64,000 nt of DNA, from positions 13,981 to 77,980 of the forward strand of contig JAJYHV010000065.1 of the NCBI GenBank assembly GCA_021790515.1, in the 5' to 3' direction. The notes beneath the pieces were generated by a model, which was not told the DNA's origin, searched no databases, and saw only the letters and a program-made list of their open reading frames with translations. Numbering within the stretch: the first letter of the stretch is position 1; every line of letters begins with the position of its first letter. This document shows, in pieces, positions 10,952 through 57,371 of this stretch. The DNA is from Pseudomonadota bacterium (GTDB taxonomy: Bacteria; Pseudomonadota; Gammaproteobacteria; Burkholderiales; Sulfuriferulaceae). The translations under genes were made by a program, and so were the position numbers.

Positions 10952-11588
10952 AATTTGTCTGTTCCATCGAATTGCTCGTCATGACATCGACATACTGACG
11001 CCATGCATCCGTCTCGCCACGATTCGCGATCTGTCTCACCCAAGTGGGGCTATTGTCCCACAAACACGGCTTGCCCGAAACCATGATTCCATTACGGAGA
11101 GGCGGTCGGATTTGATTCGCCATACCCGTTACAGCCGGAAAACAATGGATGTACGCGTCATGAATGGTTATTCCATGGACAAACTTATTGACAAATTCCA
11201 CAACGTCGCCGGCGTGCTTTCCGGTTGCAACCCAGCACGACAAATCAATCAGCGGACTCTGCAACGAAAAATGCCTGCGCCAATCTTCCGAAAGTCAGCG
11301 CAGGCACCACTCGGATGCGTCTCGAACACATCGGACGCACCCCGATGTCAAAAATCAACTATTTGCGGGCAGTTATCAGGAAAAAAACACGACCGATAAA
11401 AAACTCATCCATGCCATCACAATCAACCCCACCACAACGGTCAACGGAAAGTTGGCTTTGCTGAACAGAAAAGTAACCATGTCACACCCCTTATTCACGA
11501 CAACAAGATAAAAAGACTGTTACGTCTTGTTGAAGTGTAACAGACGCCAAGCTCTTTTTAAAGTAATTTAGTATAAAATTGTCTTTAA

Positions 11589-11762
11589 GGAAGCGCTGAT
11601 TAACTCCTCCACGAGGAGCAAAGCAGACCAAATCGCGATAATCGCGAGTCGAACGACGAAGGTCATAGCCAAGACTACGATGCCAAGGAGGTCGGCGAAG
11701 CGAGCGCGCGATTTGGTTGCAACCTATGGGACGGCGTTTGGCGGGCGAACTGCCGTGTTGCG
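11589..11762. mobile_element. MITE-like element, truncated copy (left TIR, module A, start of module B)
   Basis: TTAA followed by GGAAGCGCTGATTAA; about 170 nt closely match 43039-43213; no right TIR. Confidence 0.8.
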
Positions 11763-11803
11763 CAGCCGCCCCGCCCTTTGGGTTGCAACGGGCATCTGGT
11801 ATG

Positions 11804-31378: not shown

Positions 31379-32725
31379 ATGCACCTTCACATTCTGGGTA
31401 TTTGCGGCACATTCATGGGCGGAGTGGCGGCACTGGCCCGAGCTCAAGGCCATACTGTCACGGGTTGTGACAGTCAGGTTTACCCTCCCATGTCTGATCA
31501 ATTGCGCCTGCTGGGCATCGAGCTTATCGAAGGTTATCACAGCGACCAGGCACAAATTGGTGCAGATGTGTTCGTCATCGGCAATGTCGTACGCCGGGGA
31601 AATCCGCTCATGGAAACCATCCTGAATCGCGGGTTACCCTATATTTCCGGCCCGCAATGGCTGGCAGAAAATCTCCTGCACGACAAGTGGGTGCTTGCTG
31701 TCGCAGGAACCCATGGCAAAACAACCACCACCAGCATGCTGGCGTGGATTCTGGATTCGGCAGGACTCAATCCCGGTTTCCTGATTGGCGGTATTCCGGC
31801 CAATTTTTCCTTGTCGGCACGGTTCAGCGACAGCCCGTTTTTTGTGATTGAAGCCGATGAATATGACACGGCGTTTTTTGACAAACGGTCAAAATTTGTT
31901 CATTACCATCCAAGAACCCTGATTCTGAACAATCTGGAATTTGATCACGCCGATATTTTTGCTGACCTTGCTGCCATCGAAACCCAGTTTCATCATCTGG
32001 TTCGCACGGTGCCCGGTGAAGGCCTGATTTTGGCGCATCAGGAAGCCAGCATCGCTCGTGTACTGGCACGCGGAGTATGGACGCCGGTAGAAATGCTCGA
32101 CGCACCAGACGCATGGCACACCGTTGGCGTTGACGATCACTTTGCCGTCCAGCAGCAACAAACCCTGTTCGGAGAAGTCCACTGGTCGTTAATGGGTGCG
32201 CACAACCGCGCCAATGCGCTGGCAGCCATTGCCGCTGCCCGGCACGCGGGGGTGCCGCCTGGCCTGGCCATACAAGCCTTGCAACAGTTCACCGGCGTAA
32301 AGCGGCGCATGGAAATCCGTGGCAAAGCTGACGGCATCACGGTATATGACGATTTTGCCCACCATCCAACCGCCATTGCGAGCACATTGGCCGGGTTGCG
32401 TCGCAAAACAGGCGATGCGCGCATTCTTGCGGTACTCGAACCCCGCTCCAACACCATGAAACTCGGTGCCATCAAGGACGCTTTGCCTGCCAGCCTTGCG
32501 TTGGCCGACGAGGTTTACTGTCTGGCGGAAGGCATTGACTGGAATGTTCGTGACACCATGGCTCCGCTTGGCACACGATGTCATGTCTGCGATACGCTGA
32601 CAGAATTATTGCAAACATTATTGCAACAGGCTAAAAATGGTGACCACGTTCTCATCATGAGCAACGGCAGCTTTGGTGATCTGCACGCCAAATTATTGCA
32701 AGGGTTGGCGCAGCGCGACTCGTAG
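31379..32725 (+). CDS. mpl: Murein tripeptide ligase
   Basis: MHLHILGICGTFMGG, AGTHGKTTT, EADEYDTAFFDKRSKF, DDFAHHPTAI, EPRSNTM. Confidence 0.96.
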   Translation: MHLHILGICGTFMGGVAALARAQGHTVTGCDSQVYPPMSDQLRLLGIELIEGYHSDQAQIGADVFVIGNVVRRGNPLMETILNRGLPYISGPQWLAENLLHDKWVLAVAGTHGKTTTTSMLAWILDSAGLNPGFLIGGIPANFSLSARFSDSPFFVIEADEYDTAFFDKRSKFVHYHPRTLILNNLEFDHADIFADLAAIETQFHHLVRTVPGEGLILAHQEASIARVLARGVWTPVEMLDAPDAWHTVGVDDHFAVQQQQTLFGEVHWSLMGAHNRANALAAIAAARHAGVPPGLAIQALQQFTGVKRRMEIRGKADGITVYDDFAHHPTAIASTLAGLRRKTGDARILAVLEPRSNTMKLGAIKDALPASLALADEVYCLAEGIDWNVRDTMAPLGTRCHVCDTLTELLQTLLQQAKNGDHVLIMSNGSFGDLHAKLLQGLAQRDS

Positions 32726-32731
32726 AGGCGC

Positions 32732-32749
32732 TAATCAGCACTTCCTTAA
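32732..32749. mobile_element. Solo TIR plus TTAA remnant of the MITE family
   Basis: Minus strand TTAA-GGAAGTGCTGATTA, 13/14 identical to the TIR. Confidence 0.6.
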
Positions 32750-33613
32750 CCGCTGCGCCTGCCGCGGTATCCGTGCTTCATTCCATTCCAGTCTGGCTTG
32801 TGCCCAAAACTCTGTCACGCTGCCACAAGATACCAATCGCCGTTGTCCCAGATAAAACCATGCCTGCTGCAAATCCGTTAGCGCGGCGGTTGGCGTCAGC
32901 GCTGGTGCTTGATCGCGCTTGGACAGTTTGCGCCCGTCTGCCTGTAACAATAAAGGCACGTGAGCGTAGGTGACATCGACATACCCGAGCAACGCTTGCA
33001 AATACCGTTGCGACGGGGTGGCCGCCAGCAAATCGGCGCCTCGCACCACGTCTGTCACGCCCTGTGCCGCATCATCCACCACCACGGCCAATGGATAAGC
33101 AAACAGCCCATCGGCCCGACGCAAAATGAGATCCGCCGCGCCAGGCGCCTCTTGCCAATAACAATCCCCCTGAATACGATCAAAAAACCGTACGACGATC
33201 TTCTCTGCGCGCAAACGCCAGGCATACGTCTCTTGCAAGGGTAGTCCGCGTTCACGACACACGCCCGTATACCTTCCGCCACCAATCCGGGTGGCACGCC
33301 GACAGTCACAAGCATACAAGAGATTCTGCCGTCGCAGGCTGTCCAGAGCTGCGCGATAGGCTTCATTCCGCGTTGACTGGTACAGTATGTCACCATCCCA
33401 TTCAAATCCCAACGCGTCCAGTTGGCGCAAAATCATGTCGGCATGGTGCGCGTGTGAACGGGTAATATCGATGTCTTCCATGCGCACCAGCCATTTTCCA
33501 TGCCGTGTACGCGCAGACAGGTAGCTGGCCATGGCCGCCAGCAATGAACCTTGGTGCAATGGGCCGGTAGGTGATGGTGCAAAACGACCAATAACAGGTC
33601 TTGCAGCAGACAT
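32735..33613 (-). CDS. gluQ: Glutamyl-Q tRNA(Asp) synthetase
   Basis: GRFAPSPTGPLHQGS, VRMEDID, YPLAVVVDD, VRGADLL, KLSK; short, lacks the anticodon domain. Confidence 0.92.
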   Translation of the reverse strand: MSAARPVIGRFAPSPTGPLHQGSLLAAMASYLSARTRHGKWLVRMEDIDITRSHAHHADMILRQLDALGFEWDGDILYQSTRNEAYRAALDSLRRQNLLYACDCRRATRIGGGRYTGVCRERGLPLQETYAWRLRAEKIVVRFFDRIQGDCYWQEAPGAADLILRRADGLFAYPLAVVVDDAAQGVTDVVRGADLLAATPSQRYLQALLGYVDVTYAHVPLLLQADGRKLSKRDQAPALTPTAALTDLQQAWFYLGQRRLVSCGSVTEFWAQARLEWNEARIPRQAQRLRKC

Positions 33614-34773
33614 TATTGTGCAGCATCTCCCAAGATCTGTTGATAAAATGCCACCATCTGTTTCGCCATCTGCGGTGCCGACCACGCCAACGCGTGCAAT
33701 TTCGCCTCTTCACCAAGACGTGTCCGCAATGGTTCATCTTGCAACAATCCGTGCACCATGTCGGCAAAAGCAACCGGGTCGTTCTGTGCAATCCGGCAAC
33801 CTCGCTCCCCGGCCAGGATATCACAGGTACCCATGGCGGCAATTGCCACGACGGGCACACCCAATGCCATCGCCTCCAGCAACACCAACCCTTGCGTTTC
33901 CGTGCGCGAAGCAAAAACAAACAAATCTCCCGCACAATAACAGGCCGGCAATTCGCTAGAGCGTTCCAGATATCCGACAAACAGCACATTGTCCACCAGA
34001 TTCAATGCCTGCGTCATTCGGCGCAGCCGTTTCTCTGCGGGGCCTTCCCCGGCAATAATGAGCAAAATATCCGGCACATTGTGCCGCAACTGCGACAACA
34101 TCAACAACAAAAAATCAATATTCTTCTCGAACGCCACTCGCCCGACATACACCAGTACAGGCCGGTTTTCCGCAATGCCATGCTGCCGGCGAAAATCTCG
34201 CGCGTCACAATGATCGAAATCCGACAGTTCAATACCGGTCGGAATAACCCGTCCCGTGGTTCGCACGCCGTAACGATGCAAGGTTTGATCCATGGCGGAC
34301 GAGGGCAAAATCAAGCCATCGAGACTGGCGCACTGCTGACGCGAAAAATACCGGGCCATGTAACGTAACAAGGGTTTAGGTAACAGCGGAATATAATGGT
34401 ACAAATATTCTTCAAAAAAAGTATGGTATGTCTCCACACAAGGAATATGACGCGCGCGCGCAAACGCAATGCCGGTATAATGCGCAATGAATGGCGTATG
34501 AATATGAACCAGATCGAAATGCCGATGGGCGAGTTGCGTGGTGACTTCTCGTAGCGCAACTGACTTCATCAAGCGATCTTCCGGATCAAACAGCACCGAT
34601 CGACCGGACACGCGCAAGATGTCGGCTTCGGCCGCTTCCTGCTGACCGTATGCAGGAGCTACCAGTGTTACCTGATGTCCCAAGGACAACAACTCTCGCT
34701 TCAAGGTCATGATGGACGTTGAAACGCCATTCACGCGCGGAAAATATACGTCAGACAACATCAGGATGTTCAT
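33613..34773 (-). CDS. GT4 glycosyltransferase (diacylglycerol glycosyltransferase-like)
   Basis: YFPRVNGVSTSI, HIHTPF, GRVAFEKN, SRTETQGLVLLEAMA. Confidence 0.88.
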   Translation of the reverse strand: MNILMLSDVYFPRVNGVSTSIMTLKRELLSLGHQVTLVAPAYGQQEAAEADILRVSGRSVLFDPEDRLMKSVALREVTTQLAHRHFDLVHIHTPFIAHYTGIAFARARHIPCVETYHTFFEEYLYHYIPLLPKPLLRYMARYFSRQQCASLDGLILPSSAMDQTLHRYGVRTTGRVIPTGIELSDFDHCDARDFRRQHGIAENRPVLVYVGRVAFEKNIDFLLLMLSQLRHNVPDILLIIAGEGPAEKRLRRMTQALNLVDNVLFVGYLERSSELPACYCAGDLFVFASRTETQGLVLLEAMALGVPVVAIAAMGTCDILAGERGCRIAQNDPVAFADMVHGLLQDEPLRTRLGEEAKLHALAWSAPQMAKQMVAFYQQILGDAAQ

Positions 34774-34960
34774 GCCGATTCCGGTTAAAAAGTTTTATTG
34801 TCGCCCGTTTGTAACAAATCAACATGACTAACAGATGACAAGCCAACAAAAAAAGCAATTTTTCTGCCTCAAGTTGCTGTCCTGACGTAATTCAAATGCC
34901 AACCAGACTCGATTCATGGCGAGAATTAATCCGTACTTCCTTGACAAGGATCTCTTAAAC

Positions 34961-34984
34961 GATAATGAATATTGTTATATTATC
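34961..34984. promoter_or_regulatory. AT-rich dyad / Fur-box-like site upstream of the CbbR-like gene
   Basis: GATAAT-N12-ATTATC; 34961-34979 matches 14/19 of GATAATGATAATCATTATC; TTGACA at 34941. Confidence 0.4.
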
Positions 34985-35022
34985 ATTCTGTCCCTCGCGG
35001 TCTCCCCTATGAAAGTTGCCCC

Positions 35023-35919
35023 ATGCTACACCTCACTTTACGTCAATTGCAGGTTTTCGCCATGGTAGCACAGCAATCGAGCTTTTCCCGCGCAGCAAGG
35101 GAATTACACCTGTCGCAACCGGCGGTTTCCATGCAAGTTCGCCTATTGGAAGATAGCGTAGGACTTCCGTTGTTCGAACAATTGGGCAAAAAGATTTTTC
35201 TGACCGATGCCGGACGGGAAATGTATACCTGCAGCCAGTCCATCCAAGAACAATTACGCACCACAACAGCCCTGCTTGAACAAATGAAAGGCTTGAAGCA
35301 GGGCGATCTCAAGATTGCTGTGGCATCAACCGCCAACTACGTCGCAACGCAGTTATTGGCCAATTTCTGTCAACAACATCCTCAAGTCATCGTTCACCTG
35401 AACGTTTGTAACCGGGCAGAACTACTGGACTTGCTGGAACACAATCAGATTGACCTGGCCGTCATGGGCTTTCCCCCTCAAGGCCACGATCTGGATGCAA
35501 CATCCTTCATGGAAAACCCGCTGGTTATCATTGCGCCGCCAACGCACGCGCTGGCAGGACAACAGCAAATTAATGTCCTCCGCCTGACAGAAGAAATCCT
35601 GATCCTGCGCGAAGCCGGTTCCGGCACGCGCAGCGCCACAGAACGCTTTTTACAAAATCACGCCGTCAGTCCACGTGGCGGCCTGGTCATGAACACCAAT
35701 GAAGCCATCAAACAAGCAGTTCAGGCCAATATGGGTCTGGCCGTGGTTTCCCTTCACACCGTCAAGCTGGAATTACAGGCCGGCTTACTGGTAATGCTTG
35801 ACGTGCAGGGCTTTCCCCTGCAACGACACTGGTTTGTTGTGCACCGGACACAAAAGCGGTTATCTCCCGTCGCACAATCGTTCAAAACATTTTTGATACA
35901 GGCCGGCCAGAATAACTAA
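35023..35919 (+). CDS. CbbR/CmpR-like LysR regulator
   Basis: LTLRQLQVF, QPAVSMQV, LREAGSGTR, NEAIKQAVQANMG, SLHT, KRLSP resemble CbbR. Confidence 0.85.
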   Translation: MLHLTLRQLQVFAMVAQQSSFSRAARELHLSQPAVSMQVRLLEDSVGLPLFEQLGKKIFLTDAGREMYTCSQSIQEQLRTTTALLEQMKGLKQGDLKIAVASTANYVATQLLANFCQQHPQVIVHLNVCNRAELLDLLEHNQIDLAVMGFPPQGHDLDATSFMENPLVIIAPPTHALAGQQQINVLRLTEEILILREAGSGTRSATERFLQNHAVSPRGGLVMNTNEAIKQAVQANMGLAVVSLHTVKLELQAGLLVMLDVQGFPLQRHWFVVHRTQKRLSPVAQSFKTFLIQAGQNN

Positions 35920-41294: not shown

Positions 41295-42512
41295 ATGAAC
41301 GATGAAATTCTACTACAGGTTTTTCCTTCCCGATCCCAATCATTGCGCATAGCTTTGGTAACGGAGACCTATCCGCCCGAAATCAATGGTGTGGCCATGA
41401 CGTTGGGGCGGCAGGTTGACGAATTACAGCGTCGTGGGCATCAAATCCAGCTGATTCGACCTAAACAAGGGGTTTTTGATGTCGCGGTATCCAATCCACA
41501 TTTGGAAGAAGTTTTAAAGCCTGGTGTTCCCATTCCACGTTATGCCGGTTTGAAGCTCGGCTTGCCGGCAAAAGCAGCTTTGGTCAAACTTTGGCGATTC
41601 AAGCGGCCGGATCTTGTTCACATTGCCACTGAAGGTCCGCTTGGCTGGTCAGCGCTTTCGGCCGCACAAAAGCTTCGTTTACCCGTCAGTACGGATTTTC
41701 ATACCAATTTTCATAGTTACAGCCGTCACTATGGCGCAGGATGGTTACGTCGCCCCATTCTGGCGTATTTACGCAAATTTCACAACAAGGCCTGTGTGAC
41801 GCTGGTTCCTACCAATGCCATTCGTGAAGAATTGCAAGAACATGGCTACCGTAATCTGGAGGTGGTCGCGCGCGGAGTAGATACCGAACTTTTTCACCCC
41901 GATCGTCGTGATGCACACCTTCGTGCTTCGTGGGGAGTTTTGGATGATACCCCTGTCGTACTATATGTTGGTCGCTTGGCTGCCGAAAAAAACCTGCCGC
42001 TGGTTTTTTCTGCGTTCAATGCGATGCGCCAGGAAAATCAACGGGTAAAGCTGGTTTTGGTCGGTGACGGACCAGAGTTGCCCACACTAAAAACCCGTTA
42101 TCCGGATGCCATTTTTTGCGGTTTGCGCCGAGACGAAGACCTCGCTCGCCACTATGCCTCAGCTGACATTTTTTTATTCCCCAGCCTCACCGAGACTTTT
42201 GGTAACGTTACCACCGAAGCCATGGCAAGCGGTCTGGCAGTGGTTGCTTATAATTACGCGGCAGCTGAAGCTTTAATTCGGCATCGCATCAATGGTTTGG
42301 TCGCTGCACCACAAGATAGTACTGCTTTCGTTCGCGAAGCTGTATCATTGGTCACCGACCCATCACAAATCAAGGGTATCGGAAGGAACGCTTTTCAAAC
42401 AGCATTGTCTATTTCATGGCCTGAAGTGCATGATCGGTTTGAACGTGTTCTACAGGCGCTCGTCGAAAAGGAATCCAACCATGGAGAAATTGAGTTGGCA
42501 ATGGGTAGCTGA
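41295..42512 (+). CDS. GT4 glycosyltransferase
   Basis: TETYPPEINGVA, HIATEGPLG, VGRLAAEKN, SLTETFGNVTTEAMASG. Confidence 0.88.
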   Translation: MNDEILLQVFPSRSQSLRIALVTETYPPEINGVAMTLGRQVDELQRRGHQIQLIRPKQGVFDVAVSNPHLEEVLKPGVPIPRYAGLKLGLPAKAALVKLWRFKRPDLVHIATEGPLGWSALSAAQKLRLPVSTDFHTNFHSYSRHYGAGWLRRPILAYLRKFHNKACVTLVPTNAIREELQEHGYRNLEVVARGVDTELFHPDRRDAHLRASWGVLDDTPVVLYVGRLAAEKNLPLVFSAFNAMRQENQRVKLVLVGDGPELPTLKTRYPDAIFCGLRRDEDLARHYASADIFLFPSLTETFGNVTTEAMASGLAVVAYNYAAAEALIRHRINGLVAAPQDSTAFVREAVSLVTDPSQIKGIGRNAFQTALSISWPEVHDRFERVLQALVEKESNHGEIELAMGS

Positions 42513-43038
42513 ACACGAAGCAGGGGTGACGCGTCGATTGAATCGCGCGGGCAGGTTTCCTGTTTTGTTGTATTTGTTTCGTTACATTAGCCGCCTGGGT
42601 AATGGAATATTCTGGTACGTATTGATGATGGTCATGCTTGCCGTTCAAGGTAATCGTGCGTGGCCAATTGTCTTGCAAATGATCTTTGCCGGGTTGTTTG
42701 GAACGGCCATTTATGTCTGGCTCAAAAAGAAAACAATTCGTCCTCGCCCGCATTGTCAATTTGGCAGCATCCATTGTCTGTTAGCGCCTCTTGACCGTTT
42801 CAGCTTTCCGTCTGGGCATACTTTGCATGCGACAGCTTTTACTTTGGTCGCCATCGTTTATTACCCGTTGCTTGCCTGGTTATTGCTGCCCTTTACCTTG
42901 TTGGTTGCTCTCTCGCGTATGGTATTGGGATTACATTATTTAACTGATGTTTTGGCTGGATTTCTCCTTGGTTCAATCGTTGCCGGAATTTCATTTCTTT
43001 TGCTGGATGTTTTATCAAATTACGGATTAGTGGGTTAA
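42481..43038 (+). CDS. PAP2-family phosphatase
   Basis: K-x4-RPRP, SFPSGH, SRMVLGLHYLTDV. Confidence 0.9.
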   Translation: MEKLSWQWVAEHEAGVTRRLNRAGRFPVLLYLFRYISRLGNGIFWYVLMMVMLAVQGNRAWPIVLQMIFAGLFGTAIYVWLKKKTIRPRPHCQFGSIHCLLAPLDRFSFPSGHTLHATAFTLVAIVYYPLLAWLLLPFTLLVALSRMVLGLHYLTDVLAGFLLGSIVAGISFLLLDVLSNYGLVG

Positions 43039-43313
43039 GGAAGCGCTGATTAACTCCTCCACGAGCCGCGTTGCAGACCAAATCGCGATGATCGCGAGTC
43101 GAGCGACGAAGGTCGTAGCCGGGACTACGATGCCAAGGAGGTCGGCGAAGCGAGCGCGCGATTTGGTTGCAACCCATATGGGACGGGGTTTGGCGGGCGA
43201 ACTGCCGCGTTGCGCCGCTTGTCAAGGAGAATAACCCTTGACTGCGCGTCACGCCTTGCATTTCATCCCGCCAAGCCACCGTCGCGACCGTGTGGGAATT
43301 AATCAGCGCTTCC
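43039..43313. mobile_element. Complete 275-bp MITE-like element
   Basis: Perfect 15-bp TIRs GGAAGCGCTGATTAA / TTAATCAGCGCTTCC; TTAA on both flanks (43035-38 and 43314-17); no transposase. Confidence 0.88.
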
Positions 43314-43324
43314 TTAAGGAAGCC

Positions 43325-56501: not shown

Positions 56502-57371
56502 ATGAGGAAAATCAAAGGGTTAGGTAGAGGGTTGGACGCGTTGCTGGACGCTGAGCGGGTTGTTGACGACGCATTGAAATCGGTAAAACTGGACGAGTTG
56601 TGTCCAGGGAAATACCAGCCGCGGACCAGAATGGACGAAGAAAGCCTGCAAATGCTGGCCGAGTCCATTAAAAAACAAGGTTTGATGCAACCCATTCTGG
56701 TGCGACATACAGAGCAGGATGGACTTGAAATCATTGCGGGCGAACGACGCTGGCGCGCGGCACGGATGGCGGGTTTGCTGGAAGTACCGGTATTGGTGAA
56801 AAACGTTGCTGATGAGCATGCATTGGCGATGTCACTCATTGAAAATATCCAGCGCGAAGATTTGAATCCGTTAGAAGAAGCGAACGGAATACAGCGACTG
56901 ATAACGGAATTTGGTTTGACCCATCAGCAAGCAGCCGATGCTGTCGGCCGATCCCGCAGCGCCGTCAGCAATTTGCTGCGTCTGCTGCAACTACCCCAAC
57001 AGGTACAGCAACTGCTGATGGCGGGTAATCTGGACATGGGGCATGCTCGCGCCTTGCTGTCATTGCCCGAGCAAGAGCAGGGCGTGATTGCGCAACGATT
57101 GGTCGATCAGGCCTGGAGTGTACGCGAAACGGAAAAGCAGGTGGCGCGTTTGTTGCGGGGAGCGCCCGCACCGGAAGGTGTTGTCAAAAACAACACGATG
57201 GATCGCGATGTGTTGAATTTGCTGGAGCGCCTGTCAGAACGCCTGGGATCTCAGGTAAAAATCCAGCAGCAAAAAAAGGGTAATGGAAAATTGATTATTG
57301 AATACCAGAACCTTGATCAACTGGACCAGATTTTGTCCGGATGGAAGGAGACGGAAGGAACCGCTGATTAA
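56502..57371 (+). CDS. parB: Chromosome partitioning protein
   Basis: GLGRGLDALL, QPR, IIAGERRWRAA, LIENIQREDLNP, GRSRSAVSNLLRLL. Confidence 0.96.
   Translation: MRKIKGLGRGLDALLDAERVVDDALKSVKLDELCPGKYQPRTRMDEESLQMLAESIKKQGLMQPILVRHTEQDGLEIIAGERRWRAARMAGLLEVPVLVKNVADEHALAMSLIENIQREDLNPLEEANGIQRLITEFGLTHQQAADAVGRSRSAVSNLLRLLQLPQQVQQLLMAGNLDMGHARALLSLPEQEQGVIAQRLVDQAWSVRETEKQVARLLRGAPAPEGVVKNNTMDRDVLNLLERLSERLGSQVKIQQQKKGNGKLIIEYQNLDQLDQILSGWKETEGTAD

Follow-up and report, generated by a model that had tools for sequence, protein, structure and literature searches.

In Coxiella burnetii, the elements QMITE1 and QMITE2 overlap the 3' ends of functional genes by 1 to 50 bp, so that C-terminal residues come from the element; whether enhC terminates ahead of the element or within it depends on an indel, and IS1111, a member of the IS110 family, inserts into QMITE2 (PMC5896051). 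The Correia/NEMIS repeats of Neisseria and the RPEs of Rickettsia are small palindromic repeats fused to ORFs, and where Correia and RPE variants survive depends on whether or not they contain open frames (PMC2229807, PMC10969869). MITEs that share termini with IS of the IS5 family include BrickBuilt, MITE293, and MITE700 of Porphyromonas gingivalis (PMC4596501), and IS5 itself has been reported to prefer, loosely, the target Py-T-A-Pu (PMC5493358).

Here we describe, in a 64,000-nt stretch of DNA (the window) and in the draft genome to which it belongs, a convergent pair of housekeeping genes, mpl and gluQ, whose two stops lie in what is left of one MITE end. The locus clearly exemplifies a behavior already known for MITEs and represents no new mechanism or kind of system; its particular features, and its differences from the QMITEs, whose elements and hosts are unrelated, are that one remnant closes two converging genes and that the target is a stop-containing tetranucleotide whose coincidence with stop codons was quantified. 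Correia elements duplicate TA and RPEs insert in frame inside genes, whereas here the fused part of a gene never exceeds its last few codons and is ended by the TIR. With the aid of sister sequences, the case documents a mobile-element end turned into the C terminus and stop of two genes of essential pathways.

One MITE end between mpl and gluQ

The features of the junction are as follows.

31379 to 32725, plus strand: mpl (UDP-N-acetylmuramate:tripeptide ligase), ORF of 448 aa, identified from homologues named Mpl, with Mur ligase Pfam domains
32735 to 33613, minus strand: gluQ (glutamyl-Q tRNA(Asp) synthetase), 292 aa from Met25, PF00749
32723 to 32725, plus strand: mpl stop TAG, inside the MITE remnant; other copies have TGG or ATG there
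32735 to 32737, minus strand: gluQ stop TGA, which is the TGA at TIR position +8
32719 to 32745, minus strand: MITE-end remnant (TIR plus about 12 inner bases) in the gluQ-side reading, 19.5 bits with the terminus matrix
32746 to 32749, no strand: TTAA flank (copy of the YTAR target), read TTA-A within gluQ
32709 to 32719, plus strand: junction microhomology, native to mpl and present likewise in the 96% relative G022
32707 to 32717 and 32750 to 32759, plus strand: inverted repeat of 9 to 10 nt bracketing the remnant, both arms native coding sequence

The stops of the two genes are separated by 9 bp. On the minus strand, the gluQ frame is open from 32735 to 33685, with the Met25 start at 33613, and the database form likewise has 292 aa. 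The initial annotation had gluQ end in a lone MITE TIR, and this holds, the TIR being that of the window's 284-bp MITE: the 3' end, CGG TTA AGG AAG TGC TGA, reads as claimed, with TTAA followed by a TIR variant, so that the final three codons and the stop of gluQ are TIR sequence (TIR core at 32731 to 32745). The TTAA is read TTA-A in gluQ and is therefore out of frame as a stop. What had been taken for a TIR match of 14 nt extends in fact over about 40 nt (32710 to 32749) and includes the mpl stop. Ungapped similarity to the full copy runs for 40 to 42 nt (32710 to 32751 against 43033 to 43074, 86% complementary); over 32710 to 32749, the best copy matches at 35 of 40 positions without a gap and several full copies at 85 to 87.5%, with a BLAST E value of 1e-7 for the 40 nt. 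The mpl stop is thus also covered by element sequence, and the final codons of mpl lie with it inside the remnant, with back-up TAAs in the mpl frame downstream of the TAG (32732 to 32734 and 32747 to 32749). The match is contiguous and comprises element positions 1 to 40 only; the other end is absent, and no further element sequence occurs within mpl or gluQ. As far as sequence comparison can tell, the spacer and the last codons of both genes are the leftover of one MITE end that holds both stops.

The TIR 14-mer, allowing up to 2 mismatches, occurs six times in the window against 0.62 expected, and a 26-nt terminus matrix applied to the 1.996-Mb draft scored 239 termini, against 0 when the genome was reversed. 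That the resemblance arose by chance, or that an assembler joined unrelated sequence across a repeat, has in our estimate a probability close to nil: the draft does consist of 80 contigs broken by repeats, but the empty reversed genome and the E value of 1e-7 speak against chance, and the remnant carries mismatches of its own, shares no exact word longer than about 10 nt with other copies, and is flanked by proteins (the 448-aa Mpl and the 292-aa GluQ) that recur in independent NCBI and ENA assemblies.

On the mpl side, the junction at 32709 to 32719 is identical at 8 to 9 of 10 positions to an internal 10-bp repeat motif of the element, present in the full copy at 43065 to 43074 and 43204 to 43213, and it is at that same repeat that family members lose their middle module. 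Each arm of the bracketing inverted repeat encodes A-Q-R in its own gene. This A-Q-R repeat is also similar to the repeat inside the element; it may be due to chance, be the trace of an older element, or form a hairpin.

The MITE family and its target

Two further copies lie in the window.

43035 to 43317, plus strand: full MITE copy flanked left and right by TTAA; a PAP2 gene (42490 to 43038) has as its stop the TAA within the left flank
11585 to 11766, plus strand: partial copy, left 184 bp, assigned to the same family by sequence match

The PAP2 stop (TAA, 43036 to 43038) had been placed in the TTAA of the full copy, and it is found there, with the identity of PAP2 supported by Pfam. The TIRs of this copy occupy 43039 to 43053 and 43299 to 43313, within 29-nt arms that are 90% complementary (43035 to 43063 and 43289 to 43317), and the whole of it folds as a long hairpin (z -10.8). 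The TIRs start with GGAAG, which we take to resemble IS5. In BLAST searches the family comprised full copies of about 280 to 340 bp, copies with internal deletions, TIR-TIR mini copies of about 60 bp (on contigs C16, C45, and C75), and one-end fragments, that is, more than 100 copies of 60 to 340 bp plus fragments, all of them small and without a transposase. Termini occur at about 1 per 8 kb in the present genome; of 26 other genomes of the genus, 5 carry the family as well, with a high density in G022. At 34927 to 34940 on the minus strand, in the divergent spacer between genes at 33613 to 34773 (minus) and 34972 to 35919 (plus), a 14-mer weakly resembles the TIR (2 mismatches) and is possibly a decayed lone end.

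TTAA was not upheld as the sole target, which is instead YTAR, of the IS5 type. The logo of the flanks shows Y at -4 (86%), T at -3 (71%), A at -2 (79%), and R at -1 (86%), with no signal beyond, and an exact YTAR adjoins 83 of the 239 ends (CTAA 27, TTAG 28, TTAA 22, CTAG 6). A pair of filled and empty sites shows duplication of 4 bp, and identical 4-mers flank several full copies, a YTAR duplication of the kind that marks derivatives of the IS5 family. A Pfam search of the present draft assembly for DDE_Tnp_1 and DDE_3 found no gene, and a search of five relatives for DDE_Tnp_1 found a single gene, in G016, which lacks these TIRs and is the only one in relatives that harbor the family. Because no parent IS was found in these draft genomes, which are incomplete, the IS5 assignment is drawn from the target and its duplication. 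Like the IS5-related MITEs, the elements are short and non-coding, with TIRs and many copies (PMC4596501), and their loose 4-bp YTAR flank, with odd members such as CTGG and TTAA, is like the list of IS5 targets (PMC5493358). They differ from the IS5-related MITEs in the lack of an IS with matching TIRs and of a DDE_Tnp_1 gene in the assembly, in a far higher copy density, and in a modular interior with deletion variants.

Sister sequences and the history of the junction

Comparison of GluQ C termini showed, in line with the initial annotation, that the RLRKC tail is lineage-specific and not conserved across relatives: proteins 88 to 91% identical end in QAQRKS or QAQRES, and QAQRLRKC occurs in the present lineage only. 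Five Mpl sequences, taken from separate assemblies and almost identical to one another, have 448 aa, and those of a sister group that is 95 to 96% identical have 464 aa. The GluQ of the sister lineages has 290 aa, and this protein and the 464-aa Mpl are both recorded on NCBI contigs of 14,566 bp. Among species-representative genomes, GluQ retrieved no close relative and Mpl retrieved G022; a search of genome contigs for related loci returned only relatives of at most 69% identity. Sister DNA comprised one draft sequence per gene, contig L031 for gluQ and genome G022 for mpl.

In L031, the stop of gluQ is the TAA of a TTAA, and the very next base is the first of a diverged TIR; aligned with L031, the present gluQ misses 5 nt just before the TTAA. 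In G022, mpl retains a native tail whose stop TAA lies in CTAA and is followed directly by a full MITE copy, and the present mpl tracks this sequence to 32718, from where the alignment continues in the reverse complement of the element end. Since the sisters (with proteins 90 to 96% identical) keep longer native tails with a TIR right after the stop, we infer that the tails of the present lineage, Mpl ending in DS and GluQ in LRKC, are derived, via one deletion and one 5-nt indel. A candidate reading in which the sister Mpl tail (ending in ASATVIPPKSIGTRNRN) was itself element-coded was rejected, as the tblastn hints were weak and the G022 tail is native and ends in CTAA before the TIR. The TIRs beside gluQ in the present genome and in L031 differ at 11 of 27 positions, and the fourfold sites of gluQ show 24% differences; the two lineages may have received separate insertions at the same TTAA.

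These observations can be accommodated in the following steps: (i) in the present lineage, a deletion between the 9- to 11-nt microhomology in the mpl tail and the internal repeat of an element would have removed the last 17 codons of mpl and most of that element, whose far end abutted gluQ; (ii) a loss of 5 nt before the TTAA would have shifted the gluQ frame off its TAA; and (iii) translation of gluQ would since then enter the TIR for 4 codons and end at its TGA. The present TGA stop would in that case probably stem from the later 5-nt indel and not from the insertion itself.

The initial annotation had instead suggested a collapsed TIR-TIR scar, and in its full form this explanation would have an element insert within the gluQ tail, at a TTAA, and subsequently collapse by recombination through the TTAA present in each TIR. 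The genome does contain TIR-TIR mini copies of about 60 bp, and leftward of the TIR the sequence bears a loose likeness to a second one (7 of 9), but the scar needs a gap of 4 nt, whereas the ungapped version matches 22 of 27 nt next to the TIR and about 12 inner bases more; the mpl side is native up to 32718; and the TIR in L031 follows a native TAA, which argues for insertion at the gluQ stop and not inside the tail. We therefore consider the scar very unlikely, and an ungapped left end of about 40 nt, joined to native mpl at a microhomology, fits better. The one-end remnant of an IS5-type MITE, shaped by a deletion and an indel, with the stop coincidence described below due to survivorship, is the full explanation that we favor and hold to be quite probable.

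The convergent mpl-gluQ pair is old: it also occurs in G002 and G016, and a MITE-mediated rearrangement as the origin of the adjacency was rejected on this ground. In G002 (L010:2340-2360), the gluQ stop TAG and the mpl stop TAA, on the other strand, overlap in a single TTAG, so that one YTAR site serves both genes alike. The genes adjoining mpl in G022 and gluQ in L031 differ and are without a homologue in the present genome, and the exact state before the deletion is therefore a reconstruction. Those neighbors (L219:1-1152 of G022 and L031:1615-1971) encode three proteins, one of 147 aa, one of 195 aa that is membrane-like, and a secreted Cys-repeat protein of 118 aa.

Filled and empty sites

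The proposal that the termini restore stops was borne out directly at aroC and parB, where the duplication keeps the stop of one gene and the TIR ends the other. In G022 (L224), a gene of 644 aa and aroC overlap tail to tail by about 25 nt, and the overlap is centered on a single CTAA that serves the 644-aa gene as its stop. The present genome (C52:3571-3830) carries a 160-bp copy inserted in that CTAA, separating the two genes; the first target copy still stops the 644-aa gene, and the second has lost 1 nt, which places aroC in the frame closed by the TIR. The last 8 residues of AroC are replaced by 5 new ones, ending at the TIR's TGA. The second gene lies in the window.

57357 to 57371, plus strand: TIR from which parB (56502 to 57371) takes its final 4 codons and its stop, the TAA at +12

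parB lost its native last residues to a MITE copy, and the site is empty in G022, in which the orthologue of a third gene, for a GGDEF-EAL protein, is cut by a contig end. The PAP2 site and that of a class I/II aminotransferase, considered as clean empty sites by comparison with G022, were discarded, element sequence being present in both genomes. In the aminotransferase (C30:24230-24360; L239 of G022), the last codons, about 8, match the MITE interior in both genomes, and the present site carries a further TIR, which looks like nested element-derived C termini.

Coincidence of MITE ends with stop codons

Genes were called with our own ORF and codon-score caller (1810 genes, 89.6% coding). For 23 of the 239 termini the target holds a gene stop; at 12 termini the gene ends on the TGA of the TIR (+8), and at 3 on its TAA (+12). 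In the open frame, 4 genes run on, of which 2 are tiny ORFs, and credible gene cases number 10 in the TIR-closed frame against 2 in the open one. By Pfam, 9 of 10 genes of the +8 and +12 classes are real, with domains complete before the tail, and include aroC, parB, a GGDEF-EAL protein, LysR, and SCO1; among the weakest calls of the target class, 8 of 10 are real. The TIR had been credited with stops in two frames besides the TAA of the target. Its TGA (+8) and TAA (+12) do close two inbound frames, but the TAA shares the frame of the target's stop, so one inbound frame stays open through the TIR. In two of the three +12 cases, CAG or TGG stands in place of the target's TAG, which fits a role of the TIR's TAA as a back-up stop.

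With harmless YTAR sites defined as those that are intergenic or on a stop, and with termini that are not independent of one another, the coincidence with stops was as follows.

Per end, against all harmless YTAR sites: 19/83, null 7.5%, p 1e-5
Per end, where the end faces a 3' gene end: 19/48, null 18.7%, p 6e-4
Ends facing 3' gene ends: 61%, null 43%, p 1e-3
Per insertion: 17/55, null 15.6%, p 0.003
With each element confined to the intergenic region in which it lies: 17 observed, 14.0 expected, p 0.07, not significant
TTAA flanks only: 3/22, null 7%, p 0.2, not significant

The predicted enrichment at stops thus stood against random harmless YTAR sites, by a factor of 2 to 3 and mainly through CTAA flanks on TAA stops (12 of 27), but it failed for TTAA by itself and within the same intergenic region. 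The enrichment is real but modest. In many convergent pairs, the stop is the sole harmless YTAR, and most of the excess is accounted for by the YTAR target chemistry combined with compact spacers and the scarcity of YTAR.

The account that we propose has four parts: (i) every YTAR has a TAA or TAG on both strands, which makes stop codons that follow a pyrimidine targets themselves, and the 4-bp duplication returns the stop; (ii) in a compact genome, few other YTAR sites would be harmless; (iii) with a TGA (+8) and a TAA (+12) in the TIR, a gene hit in its last codons, by an insertion or by a later indel, would pay with a tail of 4 residues only; and (iv) deletions at element repeats would then shrink the spacers, squeezing intergenic DNA, a little at a time, out of the 2-Mb genome. 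The stop coincidence is accordingly worded here as a likely product of survivorship under purifying selection in a compact genome, with no dedicated function. A bolder version, in which YTAR-targeting elements are pre-adapted or even selected for stop codons, serve as preferred material for converging gene ends, and drive the loss of spacers in shrinking genomes, strikes us as rather improbable; if it were true, the two extra stops of the TIR would buffer later indels and deletions.

The elements could also have been kept at 3' ends for a function, for example as two-way terminators or RNA-stabilizing hairpins between convergent genes, roles of which REP or Correia elements are capable, with the stop coincidence as a by-product. 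Full and mini copies do form very stable hairpins (z -10.8), convergent spacers are over-represented (41 of 154 clusters against 216 of 1730 spacers), and in many convergent pairs a mini element is the whole spacer; divergent spacers, however, are enriched too (32 of 154 against 231 of 1730). At the mpl-gluQ junction, a 10-bp stem can form, but the element is present there by half only, the arms of the stem are native coding sequence, the predicted fold of 32707 to 32759 (-33.6 kcal/mol) has a z of only -2.5 on the plus strand and -1.3 on the minus strand, and a search of the junction for a terminator-like site with a T-run found none. As a general explanation, function at 3' ends therefore appears unlikely to us; such a role is possible for full and mini copies and is not indicated for the half-copy between mpl and gluQ. 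In annotating genomes of this lineage, one should expect element-derived, lineage-specific sequence at gene 3' ends and in short C-terminal tails, and the coincidence of YTAR elements with stops can be tested in any well-annotated genome.

Other repeats at the tips of the TIRs

Seven contig ends (C6, C22, C36, C37, C62, C67, and C75) share the same first or last 106 nt, which abut a MITE TIR two bases in from its tip and therefore represent one end of a repeat that escaped assembly and whose insertion point in the TIR is fixed. At C54:7461-8900 (L242:741-1908), a related end adjoins a mini MITE, and after this end comes a transposase of the IS110 family (346 aa, Pfam Transposase_20); IS110-type ends at the tips of the TIRs are a likeness to QMITE2 and IS1111. 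A similar end follows the 27-nt TIR that adjoins gluQ in L031.
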